Below, piece by piece: positions 30,953 to 55,009 of a stretch of DNA of 64,000 nt (position 1 is the stretch's first letter; every line of letters starts with the position of its first letter). The notes beneath the pieces are model-generated. The model did not search any database and had not been told where the DNA came from. It saw only the letters and a program-made list of their open reading frames with translations. The position numbers were made by a program, and so were the translations under genes. This DNA is from an uncultured bacterium (GTDB lineage: Bacteria > Omnitrophota > Omnitrophia > Omnitrophales > Aquincolibacteriaceae). The stretch lies in assembly GCA_964482725.1 (NCBI GenBank), contig CAYZYT010000001.1, positions 4,632-68,631 of the forward strand. Reading direction: 5' to 3'.

Positions 30953-31363
30953 TTATTTAGGCTTGAAAGGATGCGACGCCGTCGGATCCCAAGTTCCATC
31001 CGAATTCAAAATGATCGTTTTATTTTTGAAATCATCCGGCGCGGTCGCTATGCGCTGGGCCGTCGCTTTGTAGGTCGGGGGAGACCCCGCCGTGATAACC
31101 ACCGTGTAATTGAACTTACGACTCGCGGGGGCATTAGGGTCATCGATGTCCAGTGAAGCCATAGAGGTCGTGTACGTCGATGAATTCTCGAGAAAGTAGG
31201 ACGCCTCCGCTTGACGGATGGCGGAAAGATTCGCAATCGCCTCAGCCACAGAGCCTTTCTCTTCCTGGCCGAAAAAACGCGGGAGCACGAACGCCGCCAG
31301 AACTCCAAGGACGACGACCACGATCAAAATCTCAGTCAGGGTAAAACCCTTATTATTTTTCAT
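30953..31363 (-). CDS. Type IV pilin (prepilin-type N-terminal cleavage/methylation domain).
   Basis: KGFTLTEILIVVVVLGVLAA class-III signal sequence. Three N-x-S/T sequons (NSS, NYT, NKT). Confidence 0.8.
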   Translation of the reverse strand: MKNNKGFTLTEILIVVVVLGVLAAFVLPRFFGQEEKGSVAEAIANLSAIRQAEASYFLENSSTYTTSMASLDIDDPNAPASRKFNYTVVITAGSPPTYKATAQRIATAPDDFKNKTIILNSDGTWDPTASHPFKPK

Positions 31364-31380
31364 CACGTCCCCCACCCTTT

Positions 31381-31517
31381 AAAATCCGAAGCGCGAATAT
31401 CGAAATACGAAGCAAATCTTAAACCCGAATTTTTTAATATCCAAAACAAGTTGCTTCGAATGTGTTTTTTCTATTTTTCGAGCTTGTTTCGAGTTTCGTG
31501 CTTCGAAATTCGGATTT
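31381..31517. repeat. AT-rich ~140-bp element rich in TTCGAA/CGAAAT motifs with ~25-nt terminal inverted repeats (aaatccgaagcgcgaatatcgaaatacgaagc ... gtttcgtgcttcgaaattcggatttt). Paralogous to 40058-40195.
   Basis: Read directly. Lies between the pilin gene and the upstream small membrane-protein gene. Confidence 0.5.
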
Positions 31518-31520
31518 TAG

Positions 31521-31982
31521 TTAGTTCCGGCATCCCACCGTGATCTCGCTCCCGTCAAAACCTTCCGTCGTCACGGGCTTATACGCCCCCAAACAATCAT
31601 ACGATCCGGCTTCGATATCGATCCGGACCCCATTCCCCGAGGGCCCTGTCTCCGTCGCCTGACAAACTCCTTCCGGAGGCAGACATTCATAATCAAACCC
31701 GGTGCTCGCTTCGACATTCGGAAGTTTCATCTCGCCCCATCCTTCCGAATAGATCATCTTCCGGCCACTTTTCCGAGCCGACACATACTTGTAACTCTGG
31801 GTGGACTGCTGAAACGCCGTCTGGGCGCGTCGCAGCGTCACCAACATTTTCTGCGCCTCGGTCAGATTCGCGCGAAAAGCCTGCTCCGGCTCCGGCCTTG
31901 AACGAAAGAAAAAGATCCCGGCTGCGATCGCGATGGCGACAACAATCATAATAAGGATAATGACAACTTTCGAAATTTTCAT
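31521..31982 (-). CDS. Small membrane-anchored protein in the pilus cluster (possible non-canonical minor pilin/assembly factor).
   Basis: N-terminal hydrophobic anchor IILIMIVVAIAIAAGIFFF. No G-F-T-L-x-E prepilin motif. One NLT sequon. Confidence 0.4.
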   Translation of the reverse strand: MKISKVVIILIMIVVAIAIAAGIFFFRSRPEPEQAFRANLTEAQKMLVTLRRAQTAFQQSTQSYKYVSARKSGRKMIYSEGWGEMKLPNVEASTGFDYECLPPEGVCQATETGPSGNGVRIDIEAGSYDCLGAYKPVTTEGFDGSEITVGCRN

Positions 31983-32064
31983 TTTTTCAGATCGCCTCAG
32001 CTTCCTCTAAGGGAACAGGCTCTAGATAACAGCCTGTTCCCTCGAAGGCCTATCCAGCTCCGTC

Positions 32065-32490
32065 TTATGAAACTGGCCTGCAACCCTTGTTGCCGGTGAC
32101 TGTTGTATATTTTGTCATATCGCACGTAAAGACTCCGTCGATGGATAACGAAACAGAGCCGTTAGTGGCCGCGGTAGCAGCAGCCCCTCTATAGGCAGTG
32201 CAAGATCCGCTAGAACACGTATAACCAAAATTCGTCGTCGTGACCTTTTTCAATCCGAGCGATGCCCATGTGGTATTGGATGAGGAGTTGTCAACATCCA
32301 CATAACCTTGGGTCAGATCAAATGCATTCGCCTGAGCCCTGCGCAAAACACCCAGCACCTGCTGAGCTTCCGCGATATAAGCGTTCTCGGTCTGCCCCAG
32401 AAACCTCGGCAAGATCATCGCAGCCAAAACCGCTAAAATGATCACCACGATCAGAATTTCTATCAGTGTGAAGCCTTTTTGTTTTCTCAT
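32065..32490 (-). CDS. Type IV pilin (major pilin candidate).
   Basis: MRKQKGFTLIEILIVVIILAVLAA prepilin signal. Start at the second ATG with an AAGGAG Shine-Dalgarno 8 nt upstream. Sequons NSS, NTT, NGS. Confidence 0.8.
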   Translation of the reverse strand: MRKQKGFTLIEILIVVIILAVLAAMILPRFLGQTENAYIAEAQQVLGVLRRAQANAFDLTQGYVDVDNSSSNTTWASLGLKKVTTTNFGYTCSSGSCTAYRGAAATAATNGSVSLSIDGVFTCDMTKYTTVTGNKGCRPVS

Positions 32491-32525
32491 TGCATTCTCC
32501 TTTTGTGATTTTAATGCCTGCTTGC

Positions 32526-32531
32526 AGTATA
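32526..32531 (-). promoter_or_regulatory. Candidate -10 box (TATACT on the minus strand) about 35 nt upstream of the pilin start, followed by an A/T-rich tract.
   Basis: Read directly. Weak -35. A sigma-54 alternative was not found here. Confidence 0.25.
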
Positions 32532-32568
32532 CCCTGTTTTTTCCCAAAAAAACAGTTTTTGAAAAAGA

Positions 32569-33888
32569 CTACCCGCCCCCTTTGGTCGAAAGATCGATGA
32601 TGGGCATGAACATAGCGATCACGATCGTGCCGATGACGCCGCCCATAAAGATCAAAAGGATCGGTTCCAAAAGCGTGGTCAAACGCGTAAGAAAAGTATC
32701 GACCTGCTCTTCATAGTAGTTGGAGAGGAGCGCCAGAAATCGGTCGAGCTGGCCGCTCTCTTCGCCGACCGTAATAAGCTGAGTCATAAAGACCGGGAAG
32801 ATCTTTCGCGCTTCGAGCTGCACGCCGAGCCCCTGCCCGCTTCGGACCTGCTGGGCCACCCGTTTGATCCCGGCCTCGAGGAACATATTCTCCACGAGCC
32901 GTCCTGCGATCTCAAGCGCTTGAAGGATCTGCACCCCGGCGCGCAAAAGAGTTCCGAGGGACCGTGTGAAACGGATCACCGCGACCTGTATCAGGATCGG
33001 ACCAAAAAGAGGCGCCCCCAAAGCCATCTTATCATACGACATCTTGAGCGAAGGGACTTTGCTCGTGTAAACAAAAGCGATCACCGCGGCCGCAACGATC
33101 CCTGCCACCCAGAGGAAATGCATTCTCAGGGTGTCGCTGATCGCCACGACGATCTGGGTCAGGACCGGAAGCGGCATTTTTTGAGCGATAAAGATCGAAG
33201 AGAATTTTGGCACAATAAAAAGCATGAGAAAAATGAGGGCGCCCGTCACCGCAGCGGTCAGCACCCCGGGATAAAAGAATGCGGTGGTGACCTTGCTTTG
33301 GATCCGTGCCGCCGATTCCTGATAATGCGCGATCTCTTCCAGACAATCCGGCAGCTTTCCCGTCGCTTCTCCGACTTCCACCAAATTCACCCAGATCCAT
33401 GGAAAAACATGGGGATAGCTCCGGAGCGCTTTACTGAACGTACCGCCTTCCGAGACCTTCCTCCGCAGATCATGGATCACCTGCCGGAAAAAAAGATTCG
33501 AGATCCCCTTTTCGATGATCTCGAGCGAACGGAGAAGAGGGATACCGGCTTTAAGAAGGGTCGAAAGCTGAACGGCGAAAAAAATGGCTTCACGGGTCGT
33601 CACGCGATTCGTAAATGAAAAAGCACCTCCGCCGGGTTCCTTATCGGAAGACGAGGGTTTCGAAAGCGCATGCTGAAAACCGCCCTTCTTCTTGCCATGT
33701 TCCTGGACCCCGATCACCACATACCCTTGCGCCAGAAGCTTTTGAATGGCCACTTCCTCGTTGGGAGCCTCCAGGGTCAATGTTTTGGCCTGGTCCGGAA
33801 GGTCGCGCAACCGGACGTGACAATCGAAGAGCAGGTCCGGCTCTTTAAACTTGTTCGCTTGCGGGGATCCAGGGATAGGTTCATTCAT
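32569..33888 (-). CDS. pilC: Type IV pilus inner-membrane platform protein PilC (GspF family).
   Basis: Two T2SSF repeats and 3 TM helices. Typical PilC length (439 aa). Confidence 0.9.
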   Translation of the reverse strand: MNEPIPGSPQANKFKEPDLLFDCHVRLRDLPDQAKTLTLEAPNEEVAIQKLLAQGYVVIGVQEHGKKKGGFQHALSKPSSSDKEPGGGAFSFTNRVTTREAIFFAVQLSTLLKAGIPLLRSLEIIEKGISNLFFRQVIHDLRRKVSEGGTFSKALRSYPHVFPWIWVNLVEVGEATGKLPDCLEEIAHYQESAARIQSKVTTAFFYPGVLTAAVTGALIFLMLFIVPKFSSIFIAQKMPLPVLTQIVVAISDTLRMHFLWVAGIVAAAVIAFVYTSKVPSLKMSYDKMALGAPLFGPILIQVAVIRFTRSLGTLLRAGVQILQALEIAGRLVENMFLEAGIKRVAQQVRSGQGLGVQLEARKIFPVFMTQLITVGEESGQLDRFLALLSNYYEEQVDTFLTRLTTLLEPILLIFMGGVIGTIVIAMFMPIIDLSTKGGG

Positions 33889-35575
33889 AAGCCACGCTCA
33901 AGACCTCATCTAGGGTTGTCAATCCTCGCTCCACTTTCTTGATCCCGTTCTGGAGGAGGGTTTCATATTTTTTTTCTTTTTGAAGATCTCTCAATTTGGA
34001 AAGATCCGCGTCTTTAGTGACAAGACGCCGGATATCCTCATCGATCGGCAGGACTTCATAAATAGCCATGCGGCCCCAATAACCGATCTTCCGGCACTTG
34101 GGACATCCTACGGCCTTGTAGAGCGTTTCGGCACGGATCCCGTATTGAGCCTGGGTCTTGGCATCGATCTTGTACGCTTCTTTGCAATGAGGACAAAGAA
34201 CACGGATCAAACGCTGAGCCGCCACAAGGCCGATACTTCCGGCAACGAGATAGGACTGGATCCCGATATCAATGAGACGGGTTACAGCCGTAACGGCATC
34301 ATTCGTGTGCAAGGTGGAGAGCACCAAATGGCCGGTCAGGGACGCGCGAATGCAGATCTCGGCCGTCTCAAGGTCGCGCACTTCCCCCACCAGGATCACA
34401 TCCGGGTCCTGGCGCAAAAAAGCGCGGAGGGCCGAAGCGAAGGTCAGTCCGATCTCGGGCTTGACCTGGACCTGGTTCATCCCCGCGATCTGATATTCCA
34501 CCGGGTCTTCGATCGTAAGAATATTAATCTCCGGAGAAAGACGTTTGTTCAGCGCCGCGTAAAGCGTCGTGCTCTTGCCGCTTCCCGTCGGCCCGGTCAC
34601 AAAGATAAGTCCGTAAGGCCGCATCAGCGCCGTCTCGAAATGAGCGAGCTGCTCCGGTTCAAACCCGAGCAACTTCATATCCAAGAGATCCAGGCGCTTA
34701 TCCAGAATACGCATCACGACCTTTTCTCCGAAAACAATAGGGACGGTCGATACGCGCATATCGACTTTATGTCCTTTGTACTGGAGCGCGAAGGAGCCGT
34801 CCTGAGGGATCCGCTTTTCGGCGATATCCATCTTGGAAAGGATCTTGATACGAGAGACCAAAGCGTTATGCAATTCCCGGGGTGGCGGCGGAAGCTCGTA
34901 GAGGACACCGTCCACGCGATAACGGATGTTGATCTTGTCCTGGCAAGGCTCGATGTGAATATCACTGGCGCGATCCTCAAGAGCTTTACGGATCATGACA
35001 TCCACGAGTTTGACCACGGGAGCTTTCTCCGCCTCCTGGATAGTCGCTTCAAGATCGATCTTATGATCGCCCGGCTCCTGGATATAATCCTGTTTTACAT
35101 CATCCACCTCGGAGGAAGAGATCACTTCCTGGAAATCCGTATTACCATAATAGGCCTCGATGGCCCGCTTGAGCTCGCTTTCAGCCGAAAGGACCGTCAC
35201 AATGTCGTATCCGGTGATCTTGCGAAGATTATCCATAAAAATGATGTCCGGAACCTTCGCCACCGCCACCTTAAGCACTTGTCCGATACGATCCAACGGG
35301 AGAACGAGATTGGCCAGCGCAAAATCGGTCGGGATGCATTCCTTAAGACGCTGGTCCATGCGGGGTTTTAACTGATCGGTGGAAAGGAAAGAAACGCCGA
35401 GCTGCTCGGAGAGCACCAACCGGAGCTGAGACTCTTCCAGAAAACCCAATTGGATCATGATCTGACCCAGCGGTTCCTTTGTCTCTTTTTGCTTGGCAAG
35501 AGCCTGGCCCAATTGCTCCCGGTTAATGAGCCGCCGCTCAATGAGGATGTCACCTAATAAAGCGTTAATACCCAT
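33881..35575 (-). CDS. pilB: Type IV pilus assembly ATPase PilB (GspE family) with N-terminal MshEN/T2SSE_N domain.
   Basis: Walker A GPTGSGKST. Asp box, Walker B and tetracysteine motif (CPHC...CPKC). Confidence 0.9.
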   Translation of the reverse strand: MGINALLGDILIERRLINREQLGQALAKQKETKEPLGQIMIQLGFLEESQLRLVLSEQLGVSFLSTDQLKPRMDQRLKECIPTDFALANLVLPLDRIGQVLKVAVAKVPDIIFMDNLRKITGYDIVTVLSAESELKRAIEAYYGNTDFQEVISSSEVDDVKQDYIQEPGDHKIDLEATIQEAEKAPVVKLVDVMIRKALEDRASDIHIEPCQDKINIRYRVDGVLYELPPPPRELHNALVSRIKILSKMDIAEKRIPQDGSFALQYKGHKVDMRVSTVPIVFGEKVVMRILDKRLDLLDMKLLGFEPEQLAHFETALMRPYGLIFVTGPTGSGKSTTLYAALNKRLSPEINILTIEDPVEYQIAGMNQVQVKPEIGLTFASALRAFLRQDPDVILVGEVRDLETAEICIRASLTGHLVLSTLHTNDAVTAVTRLIDIGIQSYLVAGSIGLVAAQRLIRVLCPHCKEAYKIDAKTQAQYGIRAETLYKAVGCPKCRKIGYWGRMAIYEVLPIDEDIRRLVTKDADLSKLRDLQKEKKYETLLQNGIKKVERGLTTLDEVLSVAYE

Positions 35576-35590
35576 GCTTTTTTTGTGCCT

Positions 35591-37387
35591 CTATTTGGGG
35601 CTCGATGCGGGCAATTTCGAGTTCTGGTCCAAGGTCTCAAGCGTGGAATCGATCAATTTCTTCCGGACATTGAAATAACCGTCAAAATCCGTTTTTGACT
35701 CCGGCCCGTCCTTCAGTTGCTTGTACCACTGCTTTTCTTTCACCTTCCAGAAGGGTGCCGTCTCTTCGTCAAAATTCAGTCGCCGGTCGGGAGGGTTGGG
35801 GGCTTGAAGCATGGTGGGATCCGTGATGATATAAGGCGTCACGAAAAGGATCAATTCCCGGTCCGCGATCGTTTTTACGTTTTTGGTAAAAAGGGCTTTG
35901 CCGATCACGGGGATATTCCCGAAAAAAGGCACCTTCCGGTCACCGTTGGCCTGTTCACTAAAAAGCATGCCGCCTAGCGCAATGGTTTGTCCGTCATTGA
36001 CCATCAGGGTAGTCCGAGCAGTCCGGGTCGTTGGATCTCCCGTATTTCCCGTCGAAGACACATCTTTGATCTTCGATTCCTCCACCGTCGCAAATGTCGG
36101 TTCCAGCGTCAAGGTAATACGTCCGCCGGTATTGATCAGCGGGGTCACACGCAAAAGCGTGCCGGTTTCATAACGCTCGATACTTGAAGAAGTGGTTCCC
36201 GCTCCCCCTGCTTCCGTATTCGTCGTCGAACCAATGGCCGACTGGGTCGAGATCTTGATCAAGGCGGGTTGATTGTCCAAAGCCAGGATCTTGGGCTTCG
36301 CCAGGATCTTGAGCTTCCCGGAAGTCTCCAGGGCGTTGATCTTAATCTGAAAGCTCGAAAAATCCCGGCTTCCCGGAGTGACCGTGCCCGAACTGTTCGT
36401 CGGATTAAACTGTTTGGCGGTATCTCTGAACGTATTTCCGATATTACCAAAGAACCCTTTAAAACTTCCGCTGCTTGGGACAGAACCTGTCCTGAAAGGC
36501 CATTCGGTCGCCTCTTTAGCCCCGGTGATGGTTCCCATAAGACCGGCCGCGTCTCCCCATTGGACACCAAGATCCCTGGCAAAATCCTCCATCGTTTCAA
36601 CCAGGATCACATTGATCAACACCTGATCCACCGGGCGATCGAGCTGGGCGATCGCAGATTCGATCATCTTGAGCCGGTCTTCCGAGTCCGTCACGACCAA
36701 GCTGTTGGAACGGTCATCGACCGAAACCTTCCCCCGTTCCGAAAGGATCTTTTCAACCGACTTGACGATCGCCGATGCACCCAAATCTCCTTCATCCTTC
36801 GGAGCCGCAAGGGATCCCAATCCGGCCCCTGAAGAGCCCGAGGAACTTCCTGAGGAGCTTGAGTTCTCGATCTCTTTGATTTTACTTACTTTCACATAGT
36901 AAAGTTTATAAACGCGGGTCAGCAAAGACGGTTTTTCAGGGGCATCGGAGGAAGCCCGAAAAAGATAGATTTTCCTCCCGGGAAGAAAATCGTAGCTGAC
37001 GTTGCACCCGTACGCGATCGCCTGCAGGACATCCTCGAGGACGACATTGTCGAGCGTCATGCTCACTTGCCTCTCCGCCACTTCGGTCCCCGCGATAAAA
37101 TTGATCCCGCTCAGATTTGAAAGCACGTTCAGCACATTGATAAGCGACGCCGATTTGAAATCCAGATAATATTTCCCGTCTGTCGTCCTTTCAACCTTGA
37201 CTTCCGGGACCGCGGGGACTGTCCCCACCGGGACCGGTTGTCCCACGGAAGGAGCTTCGGGAGCCGGAGAGACCGGAGCGCCCGTGGAAGCCCCGACGTC
37301 TTCTGCCATCGCAGGATGCGAGAAACATAGGCTTAATAAAAAAACGGCGAGAACACTCCTGCTGAAAAGCGGGTTCGCTTTTTTCAT
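35591..37387 (-). CDS. pilQ: Type IV pilus secretin PilQ.
   Basis: Signal peptide, N-domains, and a C-terminal secretin domain (LVVTDSEDRLKMIE ... GGMLFSEQANGDRKVPFFGNIPVIGKALF). Confidence 0.85.
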   Translation of the reverse strand: MKKANPLFSRSVLAVFLLSLCFSHPAMAEDVGASTGAPVSPAPEAPSVGQPVPVGTVPAVPEVKVERTTDGKYYLDFKSASLINVLNVLSNLSGINFIAGTEVAERQVSMTLDNVVLEDVLQAIAYGCNVSYDFLPGRKIYLFRASSDAPEKPSLLTRVYKLYYVKVSKIKEIENSSSSGSSSGSSGAGLGSLAAPKDEGDLGASAIVKSVEKILSERGKVSVDDRSNSLVVTDSEDRLKMIESAIAQLDRPVDQVLINVILVETMEDFARDLGVQWGDAAGLMGTITGAKEATEWPFRTGSVPSSGSFKGFFGNIGNTFRDTAKQFNPTNSSGTVTPGSRDFSSFQIKINALETSGKLKILAKPKILALDNQPALIKISTQSAIGSTTNTEAGGAGTTSSSIERYETGTLLRVTPLINTGGRITLTLEPTFATVEESKIKDVSSTGNTGDPTTRTARTTLMVNDGQTIALGGMLFSEQANGDRKVPFFGNIPVIGKALFTKNVKTIADRELILFVTPYIITDPTMLQAPNPPDRRLNFDEETAPFWKVKEKQWYKQLKDGPESKTDFDGYFNVRKKLIDSTLETLDQNSKLPASSPK

Positions 37388-37941
37388 GACGGCGGTTGCT
37401 CCCTTCCGGGTAAAGATGACGACGTTTTTGATAGTGACTCCGCTGATGCGTTCTCTAAAGCAATCTTTTTTTCCGCCCGGTCTTTGGCCTTTTGAACGTC
37501 CTGATCCGGGAACAAGGGAACCGTGACTTTACCCCCGCTCACTAAAATATCGACCTCTCTCCTGCGAACCTCAACCAATTTTATTCCTTTTTTCTCATCC
37601 CCCTGATAAAAAACCTCGCCTCCAATGACCGCATAGGCGTCCTTGCTCCCGAATCCTATCCCTTGAAGTGCCACTGCGATCTCGGGACCGGCGGACGGCG
37701 CAGCGTTCAAAACGATCCCGGGAGCCTCCGGTTCCGGAGCGGTCGCGAAAGGATCACGAATTTCCTGTTGGGCCATCCGGATAGCGCTATCCATACCGGG
37801 AGTCGCCTCTTCCGGCGTTGGGGAGACAACCCCCTGCGACGCCGCGATGCCGGGCGAGGGTTCCTCGGCGCCCAGCATTAAGACTGAGGGCCACACCATG
37901 GCCAGAAAAAACCCCAAAAAACACCGGTTTATTTTAAGCAT
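37384..37941 (-). CDS. PilP-like pilus assembly protein (4-nt overlap with pilQ).
   Basis: N-terminal anchor. C-terminal beta-domain AVIGGEVFYQGDEKKGIKLVEVRRREVDIL resembles PilP. Operon position between PilO and PilQ. Confidence 0.6.
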   Translation of the reverse strand: MLKINRCFLGFFLAMVWPSVLMLGAEEPSPGIAASQGVVSPTPEEATPGMDSAIRMAQQEIRDPFATAPEPEAPGIVLNAAPSAGPEIAVALQGIGFGSKDAYAVIGGEVFYQGDEKKGIKLVEVRRREVDILVSGGKVTVPLFPDQDVQKAKDRAEKKIALENASAESLSKTSSSLPGREQPPS

Positions 37942-38479
37942 TGTTTTTTTTGGCCCGTTGTTTTAACAAAGTTTCGAACACCAGTTGGATCTGTAAAGAA
38001 TATTTGCCTTCTTGAGGGCTGGAAGAAGGTTTCCATAATATGGAGATATCCCTGACCTTGATCGCCCCGCCGAACTTTTCGACCGCCTGCAGGAATTTCA
38101 ACAACGAGAAAAAAGTCCCCTGCCCATTCATCTCCATCTTCAACTTGGTGTATCCCCCATCCGATTCGGTCCGGGGGGTCAACGTCTCAACGTGGAGCTC
38201 GGTCCGTCCCGCGATGTCGGAGATCTTTCCAAGAAGTTGGGACCGTTCCGTGAGCGTTGCTAAAACACCCTCATGGGCGTCCAGGCTTTCTCTCAGCCCC
38301 TGAATTTCCCGGTAAAGCTCAATGCGTTTCTGAGAATCCGTGATGCTTTGCCGTAAGGTCGTGATCTCCTGAAAAACCGGCTGGATCATGACCGCATAGC
38401 ACAACACGAAGGTTGCGACCCCGGCCGCAGCCTTGATGGCCCATTCTTTTTGCTGTTCATTGATCTTCACGGTCGACAT
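37934..38479 (-). CDS. PilO-like pilus assembly protein.
   Basis: Single TM, coiled coil, C-terminal ferredoxin-like region. Operon position between PilM/N and PilP. Confidence 0.6.
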   Translation of the reverse strand: MSTVKINEQQKEWAIKAAAGVATFVLCYAVMIQPVFQEITTLRQSITDSQKRIELYREIQGLRESLDAHEGVLATLTERSQLLGKISDIAGRTELHVETLTPRTESDGGYTKLKMEMNGQGTFFSLLKFLQAVEKFGGAIKVRDISILWKPSSSPQEGKYSLQIQLVFETLLKQRAKKNNA

Positions 38480-38492
38480 AGTCTAGTATTCC

Positions 38493-40022
38493 TCACTCCC
38501 CAAGGACCCGGAAACGAGTCAGATCCCGATCCCGGGACCGTTCTCTTTTGATCTCTTCGAGTTTGATCTCCGAGAAAAAATCCGACATGATCTTTCTCCC
38601 GCTCAGCGCTTTTAACCAAGAGCTGACGGTCTCTGTTTCTTTTTCGGCATTTCCGAGAAAGCAGACCCCTCGCACGTTCAAGCGCTTTCTCCTTTTCCCG
38701 TTTTGCGATATTTCTTTCCCGGCCGCGTCTTCGAGTGAAACGTAATCCAGCGAGATCGATTGGGGCAATCCTTGCCCTAAGGAGATCATAAATTCAGACG
38801 GTGAGGATTTATCGCTAAAAAATCCGTTTAGCTGCCCCACCTTTTCACGCATCTTTTCTTTCTCATTGATCAGGTCCTCCATCGAGCGAGAAGCAAGCGC
38901 AGGGAACTCCCGATCCGCGGGACCCAGGATCGCGTCATTTTTACCCTCCAACTGCATCAGATAGGGTTGAAAAACAGCGTAACGGACCAGGGCAAAGAGC
39001 ATGAGGATCGCAAAGCATCCAATCCCCAGGAATTTCAAAAGAAGAGGAAGATCGGACCGGCGTTCTGTTTTGGGTAACAGTTGGATATCCCCCATCGAAG
39101 AGCGATACCCGAGAGACCGGAGCGCCAACCCAAAGGCCACTAGCACCACATGCAGGGTCTCCGGAGGAAGCGTCTTCGCACTGGGTAAACTTGCAACATC
39201 AAAACGGATCGTGTAATTGAACGCGTGCTCCAAATGCTCGACCCAGAGCTTGAGATCGCCGGCCCCGGATAAAAAGATCTGGCCGATCGCCTCGCCTCCG
39301 GTCAACTTGTAGAAGTAGTCCATGGAAGCCTTCAACTCATTATGAAACCGTGTTTTATCTTCTTCCATTTTCCCGGTCAAAAGAAAGTCACGGGACAAGT
39401 AGACGATCCCTTTGGAAGTGAGCGTCACGTTCACATTCCCATCGGACTGAAGAACCACAAATCCATAGGTCTTGGTCTTTCCGACCATGTTTAACGCCGA
39501 GAACGCGCGGCTGACCGCATTGTAGACCGGTTCCACGATCAGGACTTTTGCGGAGACCGAACGCAGATCTTCCAAATACGCATCCAGAACTTCTCCGCGG
39601 ATCGCGGTGGCGGTGACCGAGAGAACATTCTTATGGGTCGGATAGGAGTGATAATCCAGCGCCGAATCGGAGATCTTGAATGGAACGTAGCGGCTCGCTT
39701 CATTACGAACCGCAGCCGCTTCATCTCTTTTGGGAACTACCGGCATGATGAAGTGCCGCGTCACGACCTGCAAAGGGCTGACGGCCACATTCACGAAAGC
39801 CCCGGGCTCTTTGATCTTATCAAGAGCCTTGAGAATGGCTCGAGCTTCCGGGCTTATCTTCTTGATCCGGTGGGCTTCTTTGCCGACCGTGGGCTCTTGC
39901 GGACCTTCCGGATTGATCGGTTCGACCGCGAAGGATGAGATCTGAGGCCCGGTCACCGTGCGGATCGCAGAAACCGCGATCACCTCATTGCGGCCGATAT
40001 AAATGCCAACACCTTTTGACAT
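38493..40022 (-). CDS. PilM-PilN fusion: actin-like PilM ATPase-fold domain (~330 aa), then a TM helix and a PilN-like periplasmic region.
   Basis: N-terminal PilM-like fold. Internal TM LLLKFLGIGCFAILMLFALVRYAVF. ~160-aa C-terminal region. Confidence 0.65.
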   Translation of the reverse strand: MSKGVGIYIGRNEVIAVSAIRTVTGPQISSFAVEPINPEGPQEPTVGKEAHRIKKISPEARAILKALDKIKEPGAFVNVAVSPLQVVTRHFIMPVVPKRDEAAAVRNEASRYVPFKISDSALDYHSYPTHKNVLSVTATAIRGEVLDAYLEDLRSVSAKVLIVEPVYNAVSRAFSALNMVGKTKTYGFVVLQSDGNVNVTLTSKGIVYLSRDFLLTGKMEEDKTRFHNELKASMDYFYKLTGGEAIGQIFLSGAGDLKLWVEHLEHAFNYTIRFDVASLPSAKTLPPETLHVVLVAFGLALRSLGYRSSMGDIQLLPKTERRSDLPLLLKFLGIGCFAILMLFALVRYAVFQPYLMQLEGKNDAILGPADREFPALASRSMEDLINEKEKMREKVGQLNGFFSDKSSPSEFMISLGQGLPQSISLDYVSLEDAAGKEISQNGKRRKRLNVRGVCFLGNAEKETETVSSWLKALSGRKIMSDFFSEIKLEEIKRERSRDRDLTRFRVLGE

Positions 40023-40057
40023 AATTCCCCTTTGTTTCGCTCTCTAAGTAACCTAGT

Positions 40058-40195
40058 AAATTCGAAATCCGAATATCGAAGCACGAAACAAATTCAAAAT
40101 TCGAATGCTTCAATGTCCGAGACGAGTCGTTTTGTATTTCGAATTTCAAAAATTATGATTTGTTTCGAATTTCGGTATTCGTGCTTCGAATTTCA
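40058..40195. repeat. Second copy of the AT-rich TTCGAA-rich ~140-bp element with terminal inverted repeats (aaattcgaaatccgaatatcgaagcacgaaac ... ttcggtattcgtgcttcgaatttcac), immediately upstream of the pilMN gene.
   Basis: Read directly. Shares aaatccgaa..atatcgaa..acgaa.caaat and ttcgtgcttcgaa blocks with 31381-31517. Confidence 0.5.
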
Positions 40196-40218
40196 CATCA
40201 AGAAGTGTGATCCGCCGC

Positions 40219-45666: not shown

Positions 45667-45743
45667 TTTCCAAACCTCACGAGAGTATTCCTCGGTGGAT
45701 GGGAGATTGAATTAGAATATTTCAAACTCCGTTTTTTAAAATT

Positions 45744-47264: not shown

Positions 47265-47300
47265 AACTCTCAGTTTTAAGAAGATCTTTTTAAGAACACA

Positions 47301-48224
47301 CTATTCGTTTCGGCTGGGGCTAATAATTCCCTTCAGGAATCCAAAATGCCACTGAATAAAAGCTACGATCGAGAGAAATACTTTTGTTACGTCGAAGGAA
47401 AGCCGGCACAGCGTCCCGGCCGCGAGGAGCGCCATGGCGATCAGCGCAGGAACCGGAAAAAAGAAAAGACCGAAAAGGCCCAGAAAGGTTACAAGCGGAA
47501 GCCACTGCACCGGACGAAAGGCCCCGTGCATCCGCACGAGCTTCCCCTGCGCCCAGCCGTAACGGAACATCATCCGGCTAAATCCTTGCACCGTCCGGGT
47601 CCGGTAATGGTAGACCACGGCCTGCGGATTCATCATCAGTTCCCATTTCTTTTGCCGGATCCTGTGATCCAGCTCAAGATCCTCCCCAGGCCAAAAATCT
47701 TCCAGGAATCCGCAGAACGCGTCGTAGACACTTCTGCGATACATAACATTGCAGCTCGCGTTATGATTCACCTCACGAAGAGCTCTCGCCGTCTGCATAT
47801 AGTTGGTCATAAAGCCAAAAGCCTGGAGGAGCTGCTGGACCTTTCGAGCGAACGGGACTTCATCCGCAGGACTTTTTTGAATACCGCCGACCCCCGCGAC
47901 ATTCTCACCCACAAAACCTTTCAAGAGTTCTTTGATCCAATCCTGCGGCACGACACAATCCGCATCGGTAAAGGCAACGAAATCGCCGTGGGCCTGCATC
48001 ACGGCCCGGTTTCGCGCTACGGAAGGTCCTTCGCCATTCATACGGAACACTTTAACACCCGCATGGTCCGCAGCAATTCGCCCCGTCTGATCCTCAGATC
48101 CGTCATCAACCACGATCACTTCGTAATAGGGATAATCCAGCCGGGACACCGAATCCAGACATGGAGCGATCGTCCTTTCGGCATTCTTAGCGGCAATAAT
48201 GACGGAGATGCAAGGATCACTCAT
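47301..48224 (-). CDS. Family 2 glycosyltransferase.
   Basis: ISVIIAAKNAERTIAPCLDSV ... VIVVDDGSEDQT. Confidence 0.8.
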   Translation of the reverse strand: MSDPCISVIIAAKNAERTIAPCLDSVSRLDYPYYEVIVVDDGSEDQTGRIAADHAGVKVFRMNGEGPSVARNRAVMQAHGDFVAFTDADCVVPQDWIKELLKGFVGENVAGVGGIQKSPADEVPFARKVQQLLQAFGFMTNYMQTARALREVNHNASCNVMYRRSVYDAFCGFLEDFWPGEDLELDHRIRQKKWELMMNPQAVVYHYRTRTVQGFSRMMFRYGWAQGKLVRMHGAFRPVQWLPLVTFLGLFGLFFFPVPALIAMALLAAGTLCRLSFDVTKVFLSIVAFIQWHFGFLKGIISPSRNE

Positions 48225-49651
48225 CGGGAGATCAGATAAGAAAAAAAGTTGAACCCGCCGCGAAGTTTCCGGTACAGGTCAAAAATATTTTTATTATCGA
48301 AAAGGAATTTCAGGATAAATCCGGGACGCAAATAAAACCTCTTGAGGCCCGCATCCACCAAGGCATTGATCTCTTGGATCGTGATATCCGGATAATCCAC
48401 CACCGCGCCCTGTTCTCCGCCATCCAACCAGTCTTCCCAGGCCTTCGCTTTGAGCAGGCCCTTACTTTTACAATAATCAAAATATTCGGAACCCGGCAAC
48501 GGAGAAGCGGCCGAGAACTGGAGCGTATCGAGGCCCAGCCCCAGAGCGAATTCGATCGTCTTCTTTGCCGTCTCCCTTGTTTCCCCAGGCAATCCCAACA
48601 CAAAGCAACCGTGGATATCGATCCTGGCTTTTTTGGCAGCACGGACAAAATCCAGCGCCTGCGCTACCTTCAGAGATTTTTTGACATTATCCAGAATATC
48701 CTGATCCCCGGACTCAAAGCCCACCAGGAACTGCCGGCACCCGGCCTTTTTCATTTCCGCAAACAGTTCTGCGTTACAAATGTCCGGGCGCGCATTGACC
48801 GACCAGTTTATCTTGAGACCGCGCCGGAGGATCTCCTGGCAAATCTCAAGCGCCCGTATTCTGTTCACCGTGAACGTATCATCCTCGAAAAAAAATTCGC
48901 CGCGCTTCAACTTCGGGAAAAGCCGGAGATCATGCTCGATCTCATCGACGATATTCTGAGGAGACCGGAACCGGTACTGATGCCCGAACATCAACTGCGG
49001 CCACTGGCAAAAGGTGCAACGGAACGGACAGCCCCGGCCGCCGATGATATTGATATGAGGATAAAGCCTTCCCGCATCAAAATATTTCATGATATCCAGA
49101 AATTCCCACGCAGGAAAAGGCAGGGCATCCAGATCTTGAATGAAAGGCCGGTGGGGCGTGAGTTTTGGCTTGCCGTTCTCTAGGTAACAGATCCCCGTCA
49201 CGCGCGAAAGATCGTTTTGATTCTCAAGAATATCCTTGATCGTCTCGTCGAACTCTCCGAGAGCGATCACATCGATACTGCCCCGCGCCACGCTCAAGGT
49301 TTCTTCGGGCAAAGCGCTCGCATGCGTCCCGACCATGATCACCTGAGTGGCGCTTTCTTCCTTACAGATCCGGGCGCATTGAATATCGGAGGTGATCGAC
49401 GGCGTGGTGGAATCCAGAACGACGAAATCCGGTTTTTTCTCGCGGATCACTTCCCGGAGCTTTTCCTTATCCCAGCCCTTCGCGACAAAATCATAGAGCT
49501 CGACCTCACACCCTGCCTTTTTCAATACCGCGGCTGCGTAGCAAAGCCAGTCCGGCGGCCGGATCGCCCGTCCTCTTGTACGCGCCGGCCATCGCTGGCA
49601 ACGGCAGTAATCCCGGATGAATGGCGGATTAATAATGAGAGTTTTCATCAT
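48221..49651 (-). CDS. Second cobalamin-binding-domain radical SAM enzyme.
   Basis: B12-binding region (PDFVVLDSTTPS...VIMVGTHA) and GCPFRCTFCQW CxxxCxxC motif. 4-nt overlap with the downstream glycosyltransferase. Confidence 0.8.
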   Translation of the reverse strand: MMKTLIINPPFIRDYCRCQRWPARTRGRAIRPPDWLCYAAAVLKKAGCEVELYDFVAKGWDKEKLREVIREKKPDFVVLDSTTPSITSDIQCARICKEESATQVIMVGTHASALPEETLSVARGSIDVIALGEFDETIKDILENQNDLSRVTGICYLENGKPKLTPHRPFIQDLDALPFPAWEFLDIMKYFDAGRLYPHINIIGGRGCPFRCTFCQWPQLMFGHQYRFRSPQNIVDEIEHDLRLFPKLKRGEFFFEDDTFTVNRIRALEICQEILRRGLKINWSVNARPDICNAELFAEMKKAGCRQFLVGFESGDQDILDNVKKSLKVAQALDFVRAAKKARIDIHGCFVLGLPGETRETAKKTIEFALGLGLDTLQFSAASPLPGSEYFDYCKSKGLLKAKAWEDWLDGGEQGAVVDYPDITIQEINALVDAGLKRFYLRPGFILKFLFDNKNIFDLYRKLRGGFNFFSYLISR

Positions 49652-51274
49652 TCACTCTTCGGCTATGAGATAGGAAACAGGCTCTTTCAACATTGGATAA
49701 ACCTTGCCCAACCGCAAGGGCCTTGTCTTCAGGAACTTTTCCACGTTCAAGGAACCGCCCTTTTTCAGGATCAGCGCCCAGGGGATAAACCCTTCCTGCC
49801 CATCGGAGGTAAATCCCATATGCACCATGTGGTAGTTCGATTCAACATACTTTTTTATTTCCGGCGACATCGTCTGGAAATACGGAAATGAAAAGACACT
49901 CAAGTATTCTATGCCTAATTCTTTTTCTTTGCGCTTAAAATCATCCAGGTCGATAGGCCAGCCGCAGCGCCGGTCGGCATAAGTACAAACCCCGTAACCC
50001 TGACTCCACGTATAATGAAAGAAAGGCTTCCCCGCCGAGACATGTTTTCTCAGATAATCTCCCGCCACGTCCTGGCCAAACAGCACATAATCATACTGAC
50101 GCATCGTGGCAGCATAAACATCCGGCAGGGAGATAAGCAAGAAACCTACCAGCAGGATAGACCCGGCTCGGCTCCGAAAGATCTTATTCAAAAAAAGAGA
50201 GACCTCCCAAAGAAAACAAGCGGAACACAAAGCCACTACGAATAAGAACGGCATCTGATAATAGTTGTGTTGGTTCATGTAGTCAGAGAATACAACGCTA
50301 TAGACCAAGATCCCCAGCAGCCATCCCAAAACAGTCTTTCGCAACAAGGGACTCGTCTTTGACACAAAAACCAAGACAACGCCTCCCAGCGCAGCCCCCA
50401 CGTAAAATCCCGTGAAGTTTTCTTGAAAAACATAACTGTAGAGCCTGGGGCCAAAATCATGCCAATAGGGCATTCCGAAAAACTGCATCAGTTTTGTCCT
50501 GCCCTCGAGCCCTCCGAAAATCATTTCTTTGGGACACAACCCAAGGATCACTCCCAAAGGGATAAGGGCAAAAAAGCTATGACGGAGGGCGCCCCAGAAA
50601 GAATACTTCCGGATAATTTCCTTATAAGGGACGATCAGCAACAAAGGTATCACCAAAACAAGAAAAGTCAGTTTACACAAAACGATCGCCGCCATGGCCA
50701 GGGCGCCGTAGAATAAAAATCTGAAATTCAAACTACGGGAAAACTGCAACCCGTAGAAGATGGCGATCAGCATAAATAAAAACGCCGGGCTCTCCGGCTG
50801 AAGATTTCTCGAAAAAAAATTCCCTAAGGGCAAGAAGCTCAGAATCAGCGTCGCCAAAATACCGATCGCCGGAGTTTGCGTCAAAGCAGTGCTTATGCGG
50901 AACATAAACAGCAAGGAGAGCAGAAAGTAAAAAACATTGATCCATCGTGAAGCCGCTAGAAAATACCCGTCCCCCAACAGCTTATAGCAAAAAGCGGTTT
51001 GCCAAGCGGTGAAATAACCTACGGGAGGAATCGATGCCCCGGACGGAGAGGGGCTAAGTCCATGATAGAAATCAATTTGCCGCGCGAGATAATCATCCGC
51101 TTTCACCATATTTCGCGCCATGCTGATAAATTCGTTTTCCTTCATGTTGTGATAACCCAGGGCAGGAAAATCGATGTGATAGAAGCGAATAGCCAATGCA
51201 AAAACAAGGATCCCGGCAAGGATCCAAAGAGTTTTTCGTGCGATCGGCCGTTCGGGGAGCAACCCTGCGTTCAT
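49652..51274 (-). CDS. GT-C fold glycosyltransferase (PMT/ArnT-like, GT39/GT83 type), polytopic membrane protein.
   Basis: About 11 TM helices. First periplasmic loop has an acidic motif (KENEF). Start placed at MNAGLLPER to avoid a 130-nt overlap. Confidence 0.7.
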   Translation of the reverse strand: MNAGLLPERPIARKTLWILAGILVFALAIRFYHIDFPALGYHNMKENEFISMARNMVKADDYLARQIDFYHGLSPSPSGASIPPVGYFTAWQTAFCYKLLGDGYFLAASRWINVFYFLLSLLFMFRISTALTQTPAIGILATLILSFLPLGNFFSRNLQPESPAFLFMLIAIFYGLQFSRSLNFRFLFYGALAMAAIVLCKLTFLVLVIPLLLIVPYKEIIRKYSFWGALRHSFFALIPLGVILGLCPKEMIFGGLEGRTKLMQFFGMPYWHDFGPRLYSYVFQENFTGFYVGAALGGVVLVFVSKTSPLLRKTVLGWLLGILVYSVVFSDYMNQHNYYQMPFLFVVALCSACFLWEVSLFLNKIFRSRAGSILLVGFLLISLPDVYAATMRQYDYVLFGQDVAGDYLRKHVSAGKPFFHYTWSQGYGVCTYADRRCGWPIDLDDFKRKEKELGIEYLSVFSFPYFQTMSPEIKKYVESNYHMVHMGFTSDGQEGFIPWALILKKGGSLNVEKFLKTRPLRLGKVYPMLKEPVSYLIAEE

Positions 51275-52458
51275 CTTCGAATCGCGAGAAGGCTGAGAAA
51301 GAAAGAGGAGAAGATGGTCTGGAGGCCCAGGATCATGAAGATCATCGCGGCCACGGATTCGCGGATACGGTAAAGGGCTCCGAAAGAATTCTGCCACCAT
51401 TCCACGAAAATGCTTGTGTTAAGCGCTAACCCCAAAAAGAACAAGGCCGCGCCGGCCAAAAGTCCGATCTCCAGTTTAAAATATTTGGCAAACCAGTGAA
51501 GCGCGGGCTCCTCATCCAAATACCCCTGTTTGATCGCGAAAAGTTTCGCATAAAGTCCCGTGTTGATGATCTGGTATCCCAGAACGCCCAGAAAAGCGGC
51601 CAGGATGAACATATGAATATCCCACGCATGCCCCAAAAAATTCACCGGTCCGCTCATCAGAAGAAGCATGACCAGGAACCCGAAACCGCTGAGCACCGCC
51701 CCGGGGACCATGTAAAGCCACGTCGGGCAAAAGAGAAGCATGAAGCGGAGATGCCGCCAGGCGTCCTTCACCGGGCTTAGCTTCGAGATTCCTTTGCGCT
51801 TGGAATAATCGATCGGGACTTCGAGGATCTTCAGTTTTTTAAGAAGGGCCTCCATGACCATCTCGGAGGCGAATTCCATGCCGAGGCAATGCAAATTCAG
51901 TTTTTGATAAGCCTTTTGGGTAAAACTACGCATCCCACAATGAATGTCCGAAAGCCCCGTTCGAAAAAAAAGCCGGTAAAGTCCGGTCAAAAAGGGATTC
52001 CCAAGATAACGGTTCGCCCACGGCATGGCCCCTTTTTGGATCTTCCCCTTGAACCGGGACCCCATCACAAAATCGCACCCTTTTTTCAGCGGCTCCAGGA
52101 ACAGCTCCAGGCGGCTAAAATCGTAGGTATCATCGCCGTCGCCCATGACAAGATATTTCCCCCGGGCTTCCTTAAAACCGCGAAGATAGGCCGAGCCGTA
52201 CCCAGGCACAGATTCCACAACCACGCGTGCCCCGGCGGCTGCAGCATTCTGGAAGGAGTGGTCCGTGGAACCATTATCCACCACGATCACTTCACCGCTC
52301 ACCCGGTTCTCTGTAAAAAACCGGAGGGCCTTCCCGACGCAACCCGCGATCGTCAGTTCTTCATTCAAGCACGGAATGACCACGGACACTTCTATTTCAT
52401 TCTCACCCACGAGGATCTCCCCAGAGGATCTCAAAAACGTAGATCTTTTCTTTATCAT
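51271..52458 (-). CDS. Polyprenyl-phosphate glycosyltransferase (GT2, ArnC/DPM1/GtrB-like) with C-terminal TM helices.
   Basis: VSVVIPCLNEE ... VVDNGSTDHS ... MGDGDD ... C-terminal membrane anchor. Confidence 0.8.
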   Translation of the reverse strand: MIKKRSTFLRSSGEILVGENEIEVSVVIPCLNEELTIAGCVGKALRFFTENRVSGEVIVVDNGSTDHSFQNAAAAGARVVVESVPGYGSAYLRGFKEARGKYLVMGDGDDTYDFSRLELFLEPLKKGCDFVMGSRFKGKIQKGAMPWANRYLGNPFLTGLYRLFFRTGLSDIHCGMRSFTQKAYQKLNLHCLGMEFASEMVMEALLKKLKILEVPIDYSKRKGISKLSPVKDAWRHLRFMLLFCPTWLYMVPGAVLSGFGFLVMLLLMSGPVNFLGHAWDIHMFILAAFLGVLGYQIINTGLYAKLFAIKQGYLDEEPALHWFAKYFKLEIGLLAGAALFFLGLALNTSIFVEWWQNSFGALYRIRESVAAMIFMILGLQTIFSSFFLSLLAIRR

Positions 52459-55009
52459 CCGAATAAAAAGGCTTGAAGCTTTTCATCCCTTGACCGCCAA
52501 GGAAATACAGCTTCACGAAAAGGGATTCCGCCAATTCGTCGCTGCCGATGAGCGCCTGGTACTCTCCCCCATTCCGAACGATCACGATCGTTTTCACATA
52601 ATCGCCTTTTTCGTTCACGATCTCCCGCTTCTTTCCATTTTCATAAAGAACGGCTTTTTTGGGAATCCGGTATTTTCCATCCAGGGAAGAATAAAACAGG
52701 ATGTCCCGGGAGCCCGTGTTGTAGACCACCCCGTTATCAAAATAAAGCAGTTGCCCGGCTTCTTTACCGGAAGCGGGAACCGAGGCAAACGTGTAGCGGC
52801 AGGATAACCCGTCATTCTTCCCGCGATCTTCGATCCCCGTCATGGCCGTCTGATAACTTTTCAGGGCCTCGTCCGGGGACAAACCAAAAATCGTCCGGAG
52901 TCCCGCCAGAACCTCGCCTTCCGGCTTGTGACGGTTCGCCGAAACAAATACCGCCCGAAAATCCCAACTTCCCAAAAAGGAAATGCTGGACATCTTCTCA
53001 AGCATGGATCCTTCCACGATAAAATAAGCCGGCGCGGGCCGTTGATACAAATGATCCAAAATTTTTGCTGCCGCCGCGAGCGGGACTTTTTTCTGGGCTA
53101 AAAACGCCTCGCCTTTTTTCCGGTCCAACCCCAAAAGATCTTCTAAGGCTTGCCGGCACTGAAACGGGTCGGGGATATATTTCTGCAATTCGTAATAGGT
53201 GACGCTCGAATTGTTGTTCAACATGCGAAGGATCGCGACCGCTTTGTTCTCGTCTTTTTCGATCAAGGCCCGCGCCATCCAATAACAAAGCTGCGCGTTC
53301 TGGGTTTGGCCGTCAAAGATCACACGCCTTTTCCCGTAATACTTGAACCAACTGCCGTTATCCCACCAGGAATTGAGGATGGCTTCTTTCGGAGCCTTCT
53401 GGTCAACGTAGGTTAGGGCTTTATACCAGCCTTCATGCATCATGGGCCGGATCTCGAGAGCTTTGGTCCAGCCGGTTAAAAAAATAGCTTGGACCCATAA
53501 TCCCAGACACAACAAAAACAAGGCAAGCCCGGCAAAGCGCATCAGTCCATTTTTGATCCTGAAAATGAGCGCTGGGATGGCCTCTCCGACAAAAACCCCA
53601 AAGAATAAGGCCAGCGGCAGGGAAAGATAGATCGCAAACCGGTTCCCTTTCAGAGAGGCCGCCAGCATGAAGAGAAACCAGCACGCCATCATGATCACGG
53701 GCTCCCTCCGCTCGCCGCGCCATTCTCTTAGAATCACCACGATCCCGCCAAGAAGCGATAATAGAAAAATGACTTTCCCGTAGAAAAGTGAAGCCATCGT
53801 CTTGAATGTAAGCGGCATCAGCTCGATGACCGTATAGTAGGGATTCGGCCAGATATCCTGAACTCCGGAAGAAGTGCCCGACAAAGCGGACCCGATCCGG
53901 AGGACGTCTCTCACCCAAATAATTTGATCAAGCATATGCGGGCCGATCAGCCAGTACACGAACACTGCGCTGGTTACATAAAAAACCGTCGCTGATAAAA
54001 ACAACGGAACGATCTTTCCGCGGCAATGTTCCCATCGCCTGGGTCTCTCAGCCAGGTCCCCGAGGATCACTGCCACGAAAAAGCCTGCGCTCACCACAAC
54101 CATAAACCACCAGCCGGACCACGTGATGGCATAAAGGCCTTGAAAAAAACCGGCCAGCAGGGAGAGAAGGATCGTTCTCCGTAGATTGCCCCTTGGGCCC
54201 ACCGCTTCCAAAAGCGTCCAGGTCACCGCCAGGGCGAGGATCAGACTGAGCATGTCAAAGTCGTACCAGCCCGCACAACTGCGGCTGATACACATTCCCG
54301 TCAATCCAACGAAAAAAGTACTTAGGAACGCGGATAATCTTGAGAACCAGCGAACCATAAAAGCATAAAAAAGAATCAGGAAAACCGCCGCGTAAAATAC
54401 GGGGATATAGAAAAGGAAGGTATCCAGCGGCATCGGGGTCAAAAGACTGAACCCCATGAAAAGAAATGCGGAAAGATAGAACAGGAGCCGGAAATAAAAA
54501 ACTTCCGCCCCTTGGGGGGCCAACATTAAACTGTCACGGCTTTTCCCATCGATCTTTTGATCTCCGGGATGGCCGTTCTTAATGATGTTCCGGGTCCAGA
54601 TCGCCCAGCTAAAAGGATCGTATTCCATAAAAAACGTCTGGCCACGGAAGTCTTGATAGCGGCCTTTCAACTGGCTGTATTCTTTTTCGACAGCTTTACT
54701 GAACCCCGCCTTATCCAGGAGGATCTCCTGACTTACGGCTTCGAGCCCCTGACGGGCTTGCGTCTTCGTCCCGTTGAAAGTCCCCCCGGGAATTTTCTGA
54801 AGATGCTGGTCGACGATATTGAGAACGGCTTCATTTTTCAATTGGGGGAAATAGCCCGGAAAAACTCGAACGGTGATATTCACGCCAAGGCAGATGGCAA
54901 GGAGAAGACCCCCGATAAGCGCACTGGAGCCAAGATCCGAGACGTCGATGGAAGAGAAAAAAGTCTCTGCCGACTGAACCCACTTCTTTGCCCGCGAAGC
55001 AGGGCTCAT
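52403..55009 (-). CDS. Oligosaccharyltransferase of the STT3/AglB/PglB family (GT66). Polytopic N-terminal domain plus large C-terminal periplasmic domain.
   Basis: First-loop motif [14 protein letters not shown] (compare HEFDPYFNYR of STT3) and WWDNGSWF (the WWDYG catalytic motif) after ~13 TM helices. 868 aa. Confidence 0.75.

Follow-up and report, generated by a model that had tools for sequence, protein, structure and literature searches.

A PglB-like oligosaccharyltransferase linked to type IV pilus genes in Omnitrophota and putative N-glycosylation of their pilins

Asparagine-linked protein glycosylation by STT3-type oligosaccharyltransferases (OSTs) has been studied in depth in only a few bacterial groups, chiefly Campylobacterota and some Desulfovibrio-like lineages. 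In archaea, the OST AglB acts on type IV pilin-like subunits, which carry many short N-x-S/T sequons (PMC5131992), while known bacterial pilin glycosylation is all O-linked (PMC12645811). A preliminary description of the DNA analysed here drew the same distinction, in agreement with both papers. This DNA, a stretch of 64,000 nucleotides (hereafter the window, to which all coordinates refer unless another locus is named), comes from an uncultured bacterium of the phylum Omnitrophota (GenBank assembly GCA_964482725.1, contig CAYZYT010000001.1). It carries a glycan-building gene cassette that begins with an OST gene of the PglB/AglB/STT3 family and is followed on the same strand by a type IV pilus cluster. 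Below we argue that pilins are probably among the substrates of this enzyme and of its relatives, on the evidence of gene linkage conserved across Omnitrophota and of selection on pilin sequons.

The Campylobacter pgl system (C. jejuni, C. lari) resembles the locus in that it has a single-subunit bacterial OST of the same family with alignable catalytic residues, and in that the OST gene is clustered with glycosyltransferase genes; PglB is also the best structural match to the window OST. However, sequence identity between the two enzymes is only ~14–15%, and the extended Campylobacter-type sequon D/E-x-N-x-S/T is not matched by sequons of Omnitrophota pilins. The window cassette has neither a PglC-type phosphoglycosyltransferase nor a PglK-type flippase, and its first glycosyltransferase resembles archaeal AglJ and dolichyl-phosphate-mannose (Dol-P-Man) synthase (DPMS). 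In addition, Campylobacter is without type IV pili, and its OST is unlinked to pilin genes. The window system is not a Campylobacter-type Pgl locus.

Closest in logic is the archaeal AglB pathway of Haloferax, Methanococcus and Sulfolobales, which serves pilins, archaellins and S-layer proteins. The likeness lies in an AglJ-like GT2 glycosyltransferase beside the OST and in a GT-C enzyme that possibly uses a polyprenyl-phosphate-linked donor; it is to the roles of archaeal AglJ, AglD and AglS that we liken the GT2 and GT-C enzymes of the window. The window, however, belongs to a bacterium whose pili are built by a PilMNOPQ machine with an outer-membrane secretin; its OST folds more like PglB than AglB, and the similarity of its GT2 to AglJ is under the family cut-off. 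As for gene arrangement, the closest match to the Omnitrophota relatives is provided by tfpO/tfpW of Pseudomonas aeruginosa, where alternative enzymes share one slot in different strains. TfpO/TfpW are encoded immediately after the pilin gene, which is not a stated feature of Neisseria PglL/PglO. TfpO/PilO, TfpW and PglL/PglO are Wzy_C/WaaL-type O-oligosaccharyltransferases or, alternatively, an arabinosyltransferase, and act on Ser/Thr, whereas the Omnitrophota enzyme belongs to the N-linking STT3 family. The P. aeruginosa pilin accessory genes encode O-linking enzymes (10.1101/2020.04.19.049825; 10.1101/150227), and pilin glycans of this species protect against pilus-specific phages (10.1101/150227).

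The window OST gene (52403–55009, minus strand) encodes a single-subunit enzyme of 868 aa that matches Pfam families STT3 (PF02516; 9.4e-26, 91.7 bits at a cut-off of 24.5) and STT3-PglB_core (PF21436; 29.8 bits at a cut-off of 23). A profile built from 17 OST homologues matches C. lari PglB (3e-18), A. fulgidus AglB (7e-18) and also human STT3A; in the profile alignment, D154/D156, E319, R375 and WWDYG of PglB align with the corresponding residues of the OST. The motifs E129xD131, GW[FY]D250xD252, TVxE396L, R457 and NSWWD550xG show little or no variation across 79 Omnitrophota homologues. The window sequence at positions 548–552 is WWDNG, and the W, W, D and G of this motif are invariant in 79/79 homologues; in solved OSTs, WWDxG binds the +2 Ser/Thr of the acceptor peptide. 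In PglB, R331 recognises the acidic –2 residue in the Campylobacter sequon; no conserved Arg is found at the aligned OST position. An AlphaFold2 (AF2) model of the OST (mean predicted local distance difference test score, pLDDT, 86.3) shows the GT-C membrane fold and the periplasmic C-terminal domain of solved OSTs. When this model was used as a Foldseek query, the best 19 matches were all OSTs, with PglB first (E 8e-23; template modelling score 0.69–0.70 normalised to target, C-terminal periplasmic domain included), followed by AglB and eukaryotic STT3. Relatives of the protein are annotated as Candidatus Omnitrophota. We conclude that the OST is an intact member of the PglB/AglB/STT3 family; it is predicted with high confidence to be functional, and would transfer glycan to Asn.

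The linkage of this enzyme to pilus genes was followed in relatives scanned at one genome per species. The scan yielded 105 stretches, almost all of them from Omnitrophota assemblies, and 80 loci were taken with ±10 kb around them; all 21 window proteins were searched against these loci with tblastn, and 59 loci were informative for synteny. At 25 of the 59, the OST is immediately preceded, on its own strand, by PilB, PilC and two to five pilin genes, and the last pilin gene ends 40–230 nt before STT3. Pilus genes are found downstream of the OST at 2/59 loci, the window and locus L004, which is that of a close relative. A motif search of the loci returned 91 pilin open reading frames (ORFs), all on the STT3 strand, 89 of them upstream and 2 immediately downstream. 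The linked loci belong to at least three deep STT3 clades of a neighbour-joining tree and to two different types of pilus operon. Adjacency of the TfpO/TfpW kind is thus present in 25 related loci and not in the window itself, where the OST stands upstream, ~20 kb from the pilins.

At L050, STT3 is embedded in the operon, the gene order being GGDEF, MshEN, two PilB, PilC, pilin, pilin, STT3, pilin, PilM, PilQ. Homologous operons at L083, L087, L088 and L090 keep this order minus STT3. The slot after a pilin gene can be occupied by other GT-C enzymes, YfhO at L084 (3400–5772) and a PMT_2-TPR protein at L085 (10513–12564), so that STT3, YfhO or PMT_2-TPR may stand there in Omnitrophota. Conservation of pilus–OST synteny in relatives, which the preliminary description had proposed as a check, was therefore found in three forms: the same arrangement as in the window at L004, the 25 tighter loci, and the embedded STT3 of L050.

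A second line of evidence comes from the sequons. Expected numbers were obtained from shuffles preserving the composition of each protein. Sequons occur in the window at a background of 3.76 per 1000 residues and in prepilins 1 and 2 at 31 and 22 per 1000, respectively. Jointly, the two prepilins have 7 sequons where 2.45 are expected (P = 0.004); shuffled singly, prepilin 1 gave P = 0.008 and prepilin 2 was not significant (P = 0.15). The prepilin 1 orthologue family holds 58 sequons versus 41 expected (z = 3.0), and the top 30 members of the prepilin 2 family hold 54 versus 34.8 (z = 3.6). The 93 pilins of OST loci contain 296 N-x-S/T motifs against 134±10 expected (z = 16), whereas the reversed motif S/T-x-N is not enriched in the same proteins (157 against 135 expected). 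NxT outnumbers NxS by 193 to 103, though S and T are about equally frequent. Pilins exceed their own expectation in 24 of 26 loci (P = 5e-6). In contrast, no excess was seen in 288 neighbouring non-pilin ORFs (4.1 sequons per 1000, z = –1.4). E. coli K-12 served as a control because the pilin searches listed only or mainly Omnitrophota-type relatives; its ten pilin-like proteins, a small sample, have no sequon excess either (z = –0.5).

Within the family of L050-type pilins, the 12 members encoded beside STT3 carry 3.0 sequons on average, compared with 1.23 in the other 117 (Mann–Whitney P = 2.8e-5). In one minor pilin type, a sequon falls within the last 16 residues in 16/17 members, while its register slides (NIT, NVT, NWT, NWS, NET, NDT), as expected from selection for a glycan at a place and not for a residue. 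Acidic residues at –2 are rare, with D or E preceding 22 of the 296 pilin sequons and none of the seven in the window prepilins. We conclude that sequons, especially N-x-T, are under selection in OST-linked pilins. The sequon frequency of the window pilins had earlier been proposed for comparison with background; it lies above it, modestly in the families of the window pilins and strongly in OST-adjacent pilins of relatives. Both comparisons, synteny and sequon frequency, had the power to refute the idea and left it standing.

Conserved gene linkage and selection on sequons together suggest that pilins are OST substrates. Our preferred reading is that they are modified by a bacterial N-OST recognising short sequons, and we give it a probability of about 0.6. 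Confidence is higher for loci where the OST directly follows the pilins and lower for the window, whose two blocks are neighbouring and not interleaved.

A number of observations weigh against this reading. In the window, 12.4 kb lie between the OST and pilMN and ~20 kb between the OST and the pilins, which are not adjacent to it. Pilus genes are missing upstream of STT3 at 32 of the 59 informative loci, and in one paralogue clade STT3 instead follows genes for a membrane histidine kinase (~470 aa) and a response regulator (~130 aa). The families of the window pilins are enriched in sequons only 1.4–1.55-fold, positions of sequons in them are not conserved, and 10/40 prepilin 1 orthologues and 4 of the top 30 prepilin 2 relatives have none. 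The NLS in the α1 helix of prepilin 1 is kept in few orthologues only. Given this poor positional conservation, we claim no specific glycosylation sites for the window pilins. Some operons without an STT3 gene within 10 kb likewise encode pilins with 3–4 sequons, and a comparison of eight genomic contexts within 10 kb between zero- and high-sequon pilins of one family gave no clean dichotomy. The sequon tests, including that with z = 16, treat related sequences as independent, and their z-scores overstate the number of independent events, although the direction is consistent throughout. In the OST itself, the candidate stretch for the third motif (DK/MI) reads D-E-N-K-A-V-A-I, with the Lys replaced by Glu in most homologues and no clear MI. 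Among the nine window cassette proteins, Pfam and NCBIfam searches found no Bac_transf, ABC or Wzx domain. Finally, the pilin N-glycans of Omnitrophota proposed here are predicted from gene linkage and sequons.

Several of these points would fit an OST acting as a general glycosylase of envelope proteins (periplasmic, S-layer or outer-membrane), its proximity to pili reflecting the clustering of envelope genes or the landing of a mobile cassette, and the window pilins being incidental substrates at most. The many STT3 loci without pili indeed indicate that the enzyme family probably has other or broader substrates; the clade tied to a two-component system, the modest and positionally unconserved enrichment in the window pilin families, and the different place of the cassette on a shared backbone at L094 (see below) point in the same direction. 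Such a glycosylase leaves unaccounted for the lack of a sequon excess in neighbouring non-pilin ORFs, the recurrence of pilus linkage, with two orientations, across three or more deep clades, and the position of STT3 within the L050 pilus operon. The L004 cassette, moreover, stands beside pilus genes despite its replaced content. We consider this explanation unlikely, though it survives better than the other alternatives.

The kinase–regulator STT3 clade comprises loci L039, L040, L042, L049, L054, L061, L066, L067, L068, L072 and L074, and some genomes have two STT3 loci each.

Another explanation is that the pilins are O-glycosylated on Ser/Thr by the PMT_2-type GT-C encoded at 49652–51274, with STT3 serving other targets. 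The placement of PMT_2-TPR or YfhO right after a pilin gene in other Omnitrophota would agree with this, as would the richness of the pilins in Ser and Thr and the O-linked nature of all known bacterial pilin glycosylation (PMC12645811). But neither the excess of N-x-S/T over S/T-x-N nor the 2:1 preference for NxT would then be explained, and the five tandem pilins ahead of YfhO at L084 carry 0, 0, 0, 1 and 2 sequons, against the mean of 3.0 beside STT3. We regard O-glycosylation in place of N-glycosylation as quite improbable. Least probable of all is that the block makes a lipid- or polysaccharide-linked glycoconjugate, its STT3 homologue glycosylating no protein and the pilin sequons being a compositional accident: the block does contain an ArnT/PMT-like GT-C as well as an HpnJ-like radical SAM enzyme, and neither a phosphoglycosyltransferase nor a flippase was found in the window cassette, but WWDxG, which binds the acceptor +2 Ser/Thr in solved OSTs, is invariant, and the sequon excess withstands both composition shuffles and the reversed-motif control.

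Returning to the reading of pilins as N-OST substrates, we asked what the window cassette could supply to the enzyme. Between 30953 and 57056 the minus strand holds all genes. In transcription order, leuC, leuD and the OST come first, eight glycan-building genes and one for a coiled-coil protein follow, and pilMN-O-P-Q-B-C and three pilin genes stand last; the OST start and the leuD stop overlap by 4 nt. The gene content and order given in the preliminary description for the glycosylation and pilus blocks are borne out by the ORF calls and Pfam matches. A scan of 30000–42000 for promoters and terminators gave counts at chance level, and operon boundaries are therefore not readable from it.

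Directly after the OST gene comes a GT2 enzyme with a C-terminal domain of four transmembrane segments (51271–52434; Pfam GT2 and GT2_TM_C). Its best NCBIfam match is AglJ (TIGR04182; 6.7e-47, 160 bits, under the cut-off of 325), its best Protein Data Bank (PDB) match is Dol-P-Man synthase of P. furiosus (8e-13), and a homologue stands directly after STT3 in 59/81 loci. This protein is probably an AglJ/DPMS-like polyprenyl-phosphate hexosyltransferase, and the likeness suggests a polyprenyl-phosphate-linked sugar as the starting point of the glycan. The next gene (49652–51274) encodes the PMT_2/ArnT-like GT-C glycosyltransferase of 540 aa (Pfam PMT_2, 1.9e-6), which has homologues in 27 STT3 loci and gave no match in a PDB sequence search. 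It is followed by the HpnJ-like B12-binding radical SAM enzyme (48221–49651; NCBIfam HpnJ 1.3e-110, 370 bits against a cut-off of 577). In the best-matching loci this protein is 58–66% identical, while STT3 there is ~33% identical; such conservation beyond that of the OST suggests a conserved unusual sugar or lipid modification.

Farther along the cassette are a GT2 glycosyltransferase (47301–48224; Pfam 1.6e-34) with homologues in 42 loci, a second B12-binding radical SAM enzyme (45744–47264; Pfam Radical_SAM and B12-binding), another GT2 (44668–45666; Pfam 4.9e-27) and a 580-aa methyltransferase fusion with a C-terminal S-adenosylmethionine methyltransferase domain (42860–44602; Pfam Methyltransf_23, 1.3e-16). 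The last gene encodes a protein with a GT2 domain at its N-terminus only (41642–42859; Pfam 1.7e-18), whose best NCBIfam similarity is PglI-like and far under the cut-off.

These genes can be arranged into a putative pathway by homology. The AglJ/DPMS-like GT2 would charge polyprenyl phosphate with the first sugar at the cytoplasmic face of the membrane, and the glycan could then be extended and decorated by the other GT2 enzymes, the two B12-binding radical SAM enzymes and the methyltransferase. The lipid-linked glycan would next be flipped across the membrane; cassettes of relatives include a Wzx-like gene for a candidate flippase, which the window cassette lacks. In the periplasm, the PglB-like OST would transfer the glycan onto Asn in the short N-x-S/T sequons of pilins, with an acidic –2 residue dispensable, before or during pilus assembly. 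More speculatively, a further sugar may come from the PMT_2 GT-C, which would take it from a polyprenyl-phosphate-linked donor on the outer face of the membrane and place it on the bound glycan or on Ser/Thr; a glycan coat on the pilus surface might mask it from phages or tune adhesion. As a whole, the window appears rather likely to encode a complete-looking bacterial N-glycosylation module with type IV pilins among its acceptor proteins.

L004 retains the window order of leuCD, OST, cassette, coiled-coil gene and pilMNOPQ, and its flanking proteins are close to those of the window: identity is 90% for leuC, 84% for leuD, 82% for PilMN, 69% for the protein at the PilP position and 65% for the coiled-coil protein, which occupies the same position. 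Yet its STT3 is only 45% identical to that of the window, and the 4.7 kb up to the coiled-coil gene hold different genes. Conserved flanks with different contents indicate that the cassette has been replaced between these relatives. At L094, the cassette lies between dinB and leuC, on the housekeeping backbone of the window (uppS-cdsA-dxr-rseP-proS-dinB); the difference in place means that the cassette moves. L095 is a further locus with a replaced or moved cassette. Exchange of the glycan cassette among close relatives is in keeping with the usual behaviour of surface-glycan loci, and this swapping suggests diversifying selection on the pilus glycan, for example from phage.

Some additional features of this region were recorded. 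L004 10001–17293 is the counterpart of window 41642–55009. A gene for a four-helix protein of the 23S rRNA intervening-sequence type is present at 28933–29382 of the window, and the same family is found between leuC and leuD at L095 (1652–2056); at L004, an uncharacterised 114-aa ORF (8905–9249) stands between leuC and leuD.

A picture for the phylum would combine N-glycosylated pili, a PglB-like short-sequon OST in or beside the pilus operon, an AglJ-like polyprenyl-phosphate feed, and swapping between lineages of both the glycan cassette and the class of GT-C in the slot (STT3, YfhO or PMT_2-TPR). In this full form, which is predicted from sequence comparisons, we hold its chances to be even.

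In the window, the glycosylation and pilus blocks are divided by one gene for a membrane coiled-coil protein (40219–41382; no family match), the single such gene of the preliminary description. Downstream of it lie genes for a PilM-PilN fusion (38493–40022; Pfam PilM_2), PilO (37934–38479; Pfam PilO), a protein at the PilP position without a Pfam family match (37384–37941), the secretin PilQ (35591–37387; Pfam Secretin, 2.6e-39), the assembly ATPase PilB with an MshEN domain (33881–35575; Pfam T2SSE, 8.6e-138, and MshEN) and the platform protein PilC (32569–33888; Pfam T2SSF, 2.5e-56). Three pilin or pilin-like genes complete the row: prepilin 2 (32065–32490; MRKQKG/FTLIEIL, Pfam N_methyl), a pilin-like protein of 153 aa (31521–31982; no Pfam match) and prepilin 1 (30953–31363; MKNNKG/FTLTEIL, Pfam N_methyl). 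The cluster thus shows features of a type IVa system, namely a PilB-type ATPase, a PilC platform, PilM/N/O, a secretin, and prepilins with a class III signal (G-1, F+1, E+5). Pfam scans of window ORFs revealed no retraction ATPase PilT and no prepilin peptidase PilD, whose genes may lie in another part of the genome. The cluster is closed by a gene for a MazF/PemK toxin and a small gene for a ribbon-helix-helix (RHH)-type antitoxin (30193–30793), both directly 3′ of the last pilin gene.

Three sequons had initially been ascribed to each prepilin. This holds for prepilin 2 (NSS, NTT, NGS), while prepilin 1 has four (NLS, NSS, NYT, NKT), the NLS having been overlooked; the single NLT counted in the small membrane protein between them is confirmed. 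The AF2 model of prepilin 1 (pLDDT 93.8) has a canonical type IV pilin fold, its nearest folds being PilE and PilA of P. aeruginosa, and the four sequons map to the α1 helix (NLS), the helix end, the first β-strand and the loop before the third β-strand. The 153-aa protein contains a pilin-like helix, EAQKMLVTLRRAQTAFQ, resembling α1 of both pilins, and in place of a class III signal it has an N-terminal membrane anchor that looks uncleaved. It resembles a pilin that has lost its class III signal.

We found no report of N-glycosylated bacterial pili in a search of literature available without subscription, and, within the same scope, no paper linking Omnitrophota or Omnitrophica with oligosaccharyltransferase, STT3 or PglB. 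Matches for names beginning with Omnitroph together with N-glycosylation were rejected, as they concern an unrelated commercial fucosidase. If the proposed modification is real, it would be the first N-glycosylated bacterial pilus as far as we found, and phylum-wide genetic coupling between type IV pili and a PglB-like enzyme would mean that a trait of archaea extends to bacteria, and would give OSTs of Omnitrophota a testable function. The cells of this phylum are very small and uncultured and possibly depend on hosts; pili may be of central importance to them. The locus would also point to a natural source of bacterial OSTs with a relaxed sequon; enzymes apparently using short N-x-S/T without an acidic –2 residue are relevant to glycoengineering.

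Other parts of the window contain unrelated features. The two strands carry overlapping long ORFs at 26743–28929. That on the minus strand (26953–28929) is glucoamylase-like with a CBM9 domain; the 689-aa plus-strand ORF (26743–28812) was rejected as a gene, since it overlaps the former and is without a family match. An efflux module at 16087–26027 comprises a tandem pair of AcrB-type RND pump genes together with a membrane-fusion protein and an outer-membrane factor, and two 7TM-HisKA histidine kinases are encoded at 6555–9056 and 10450–12717. The G+C content is 0.415 at positions 1–2000 versus 0.47–0.55 across the remaining window.

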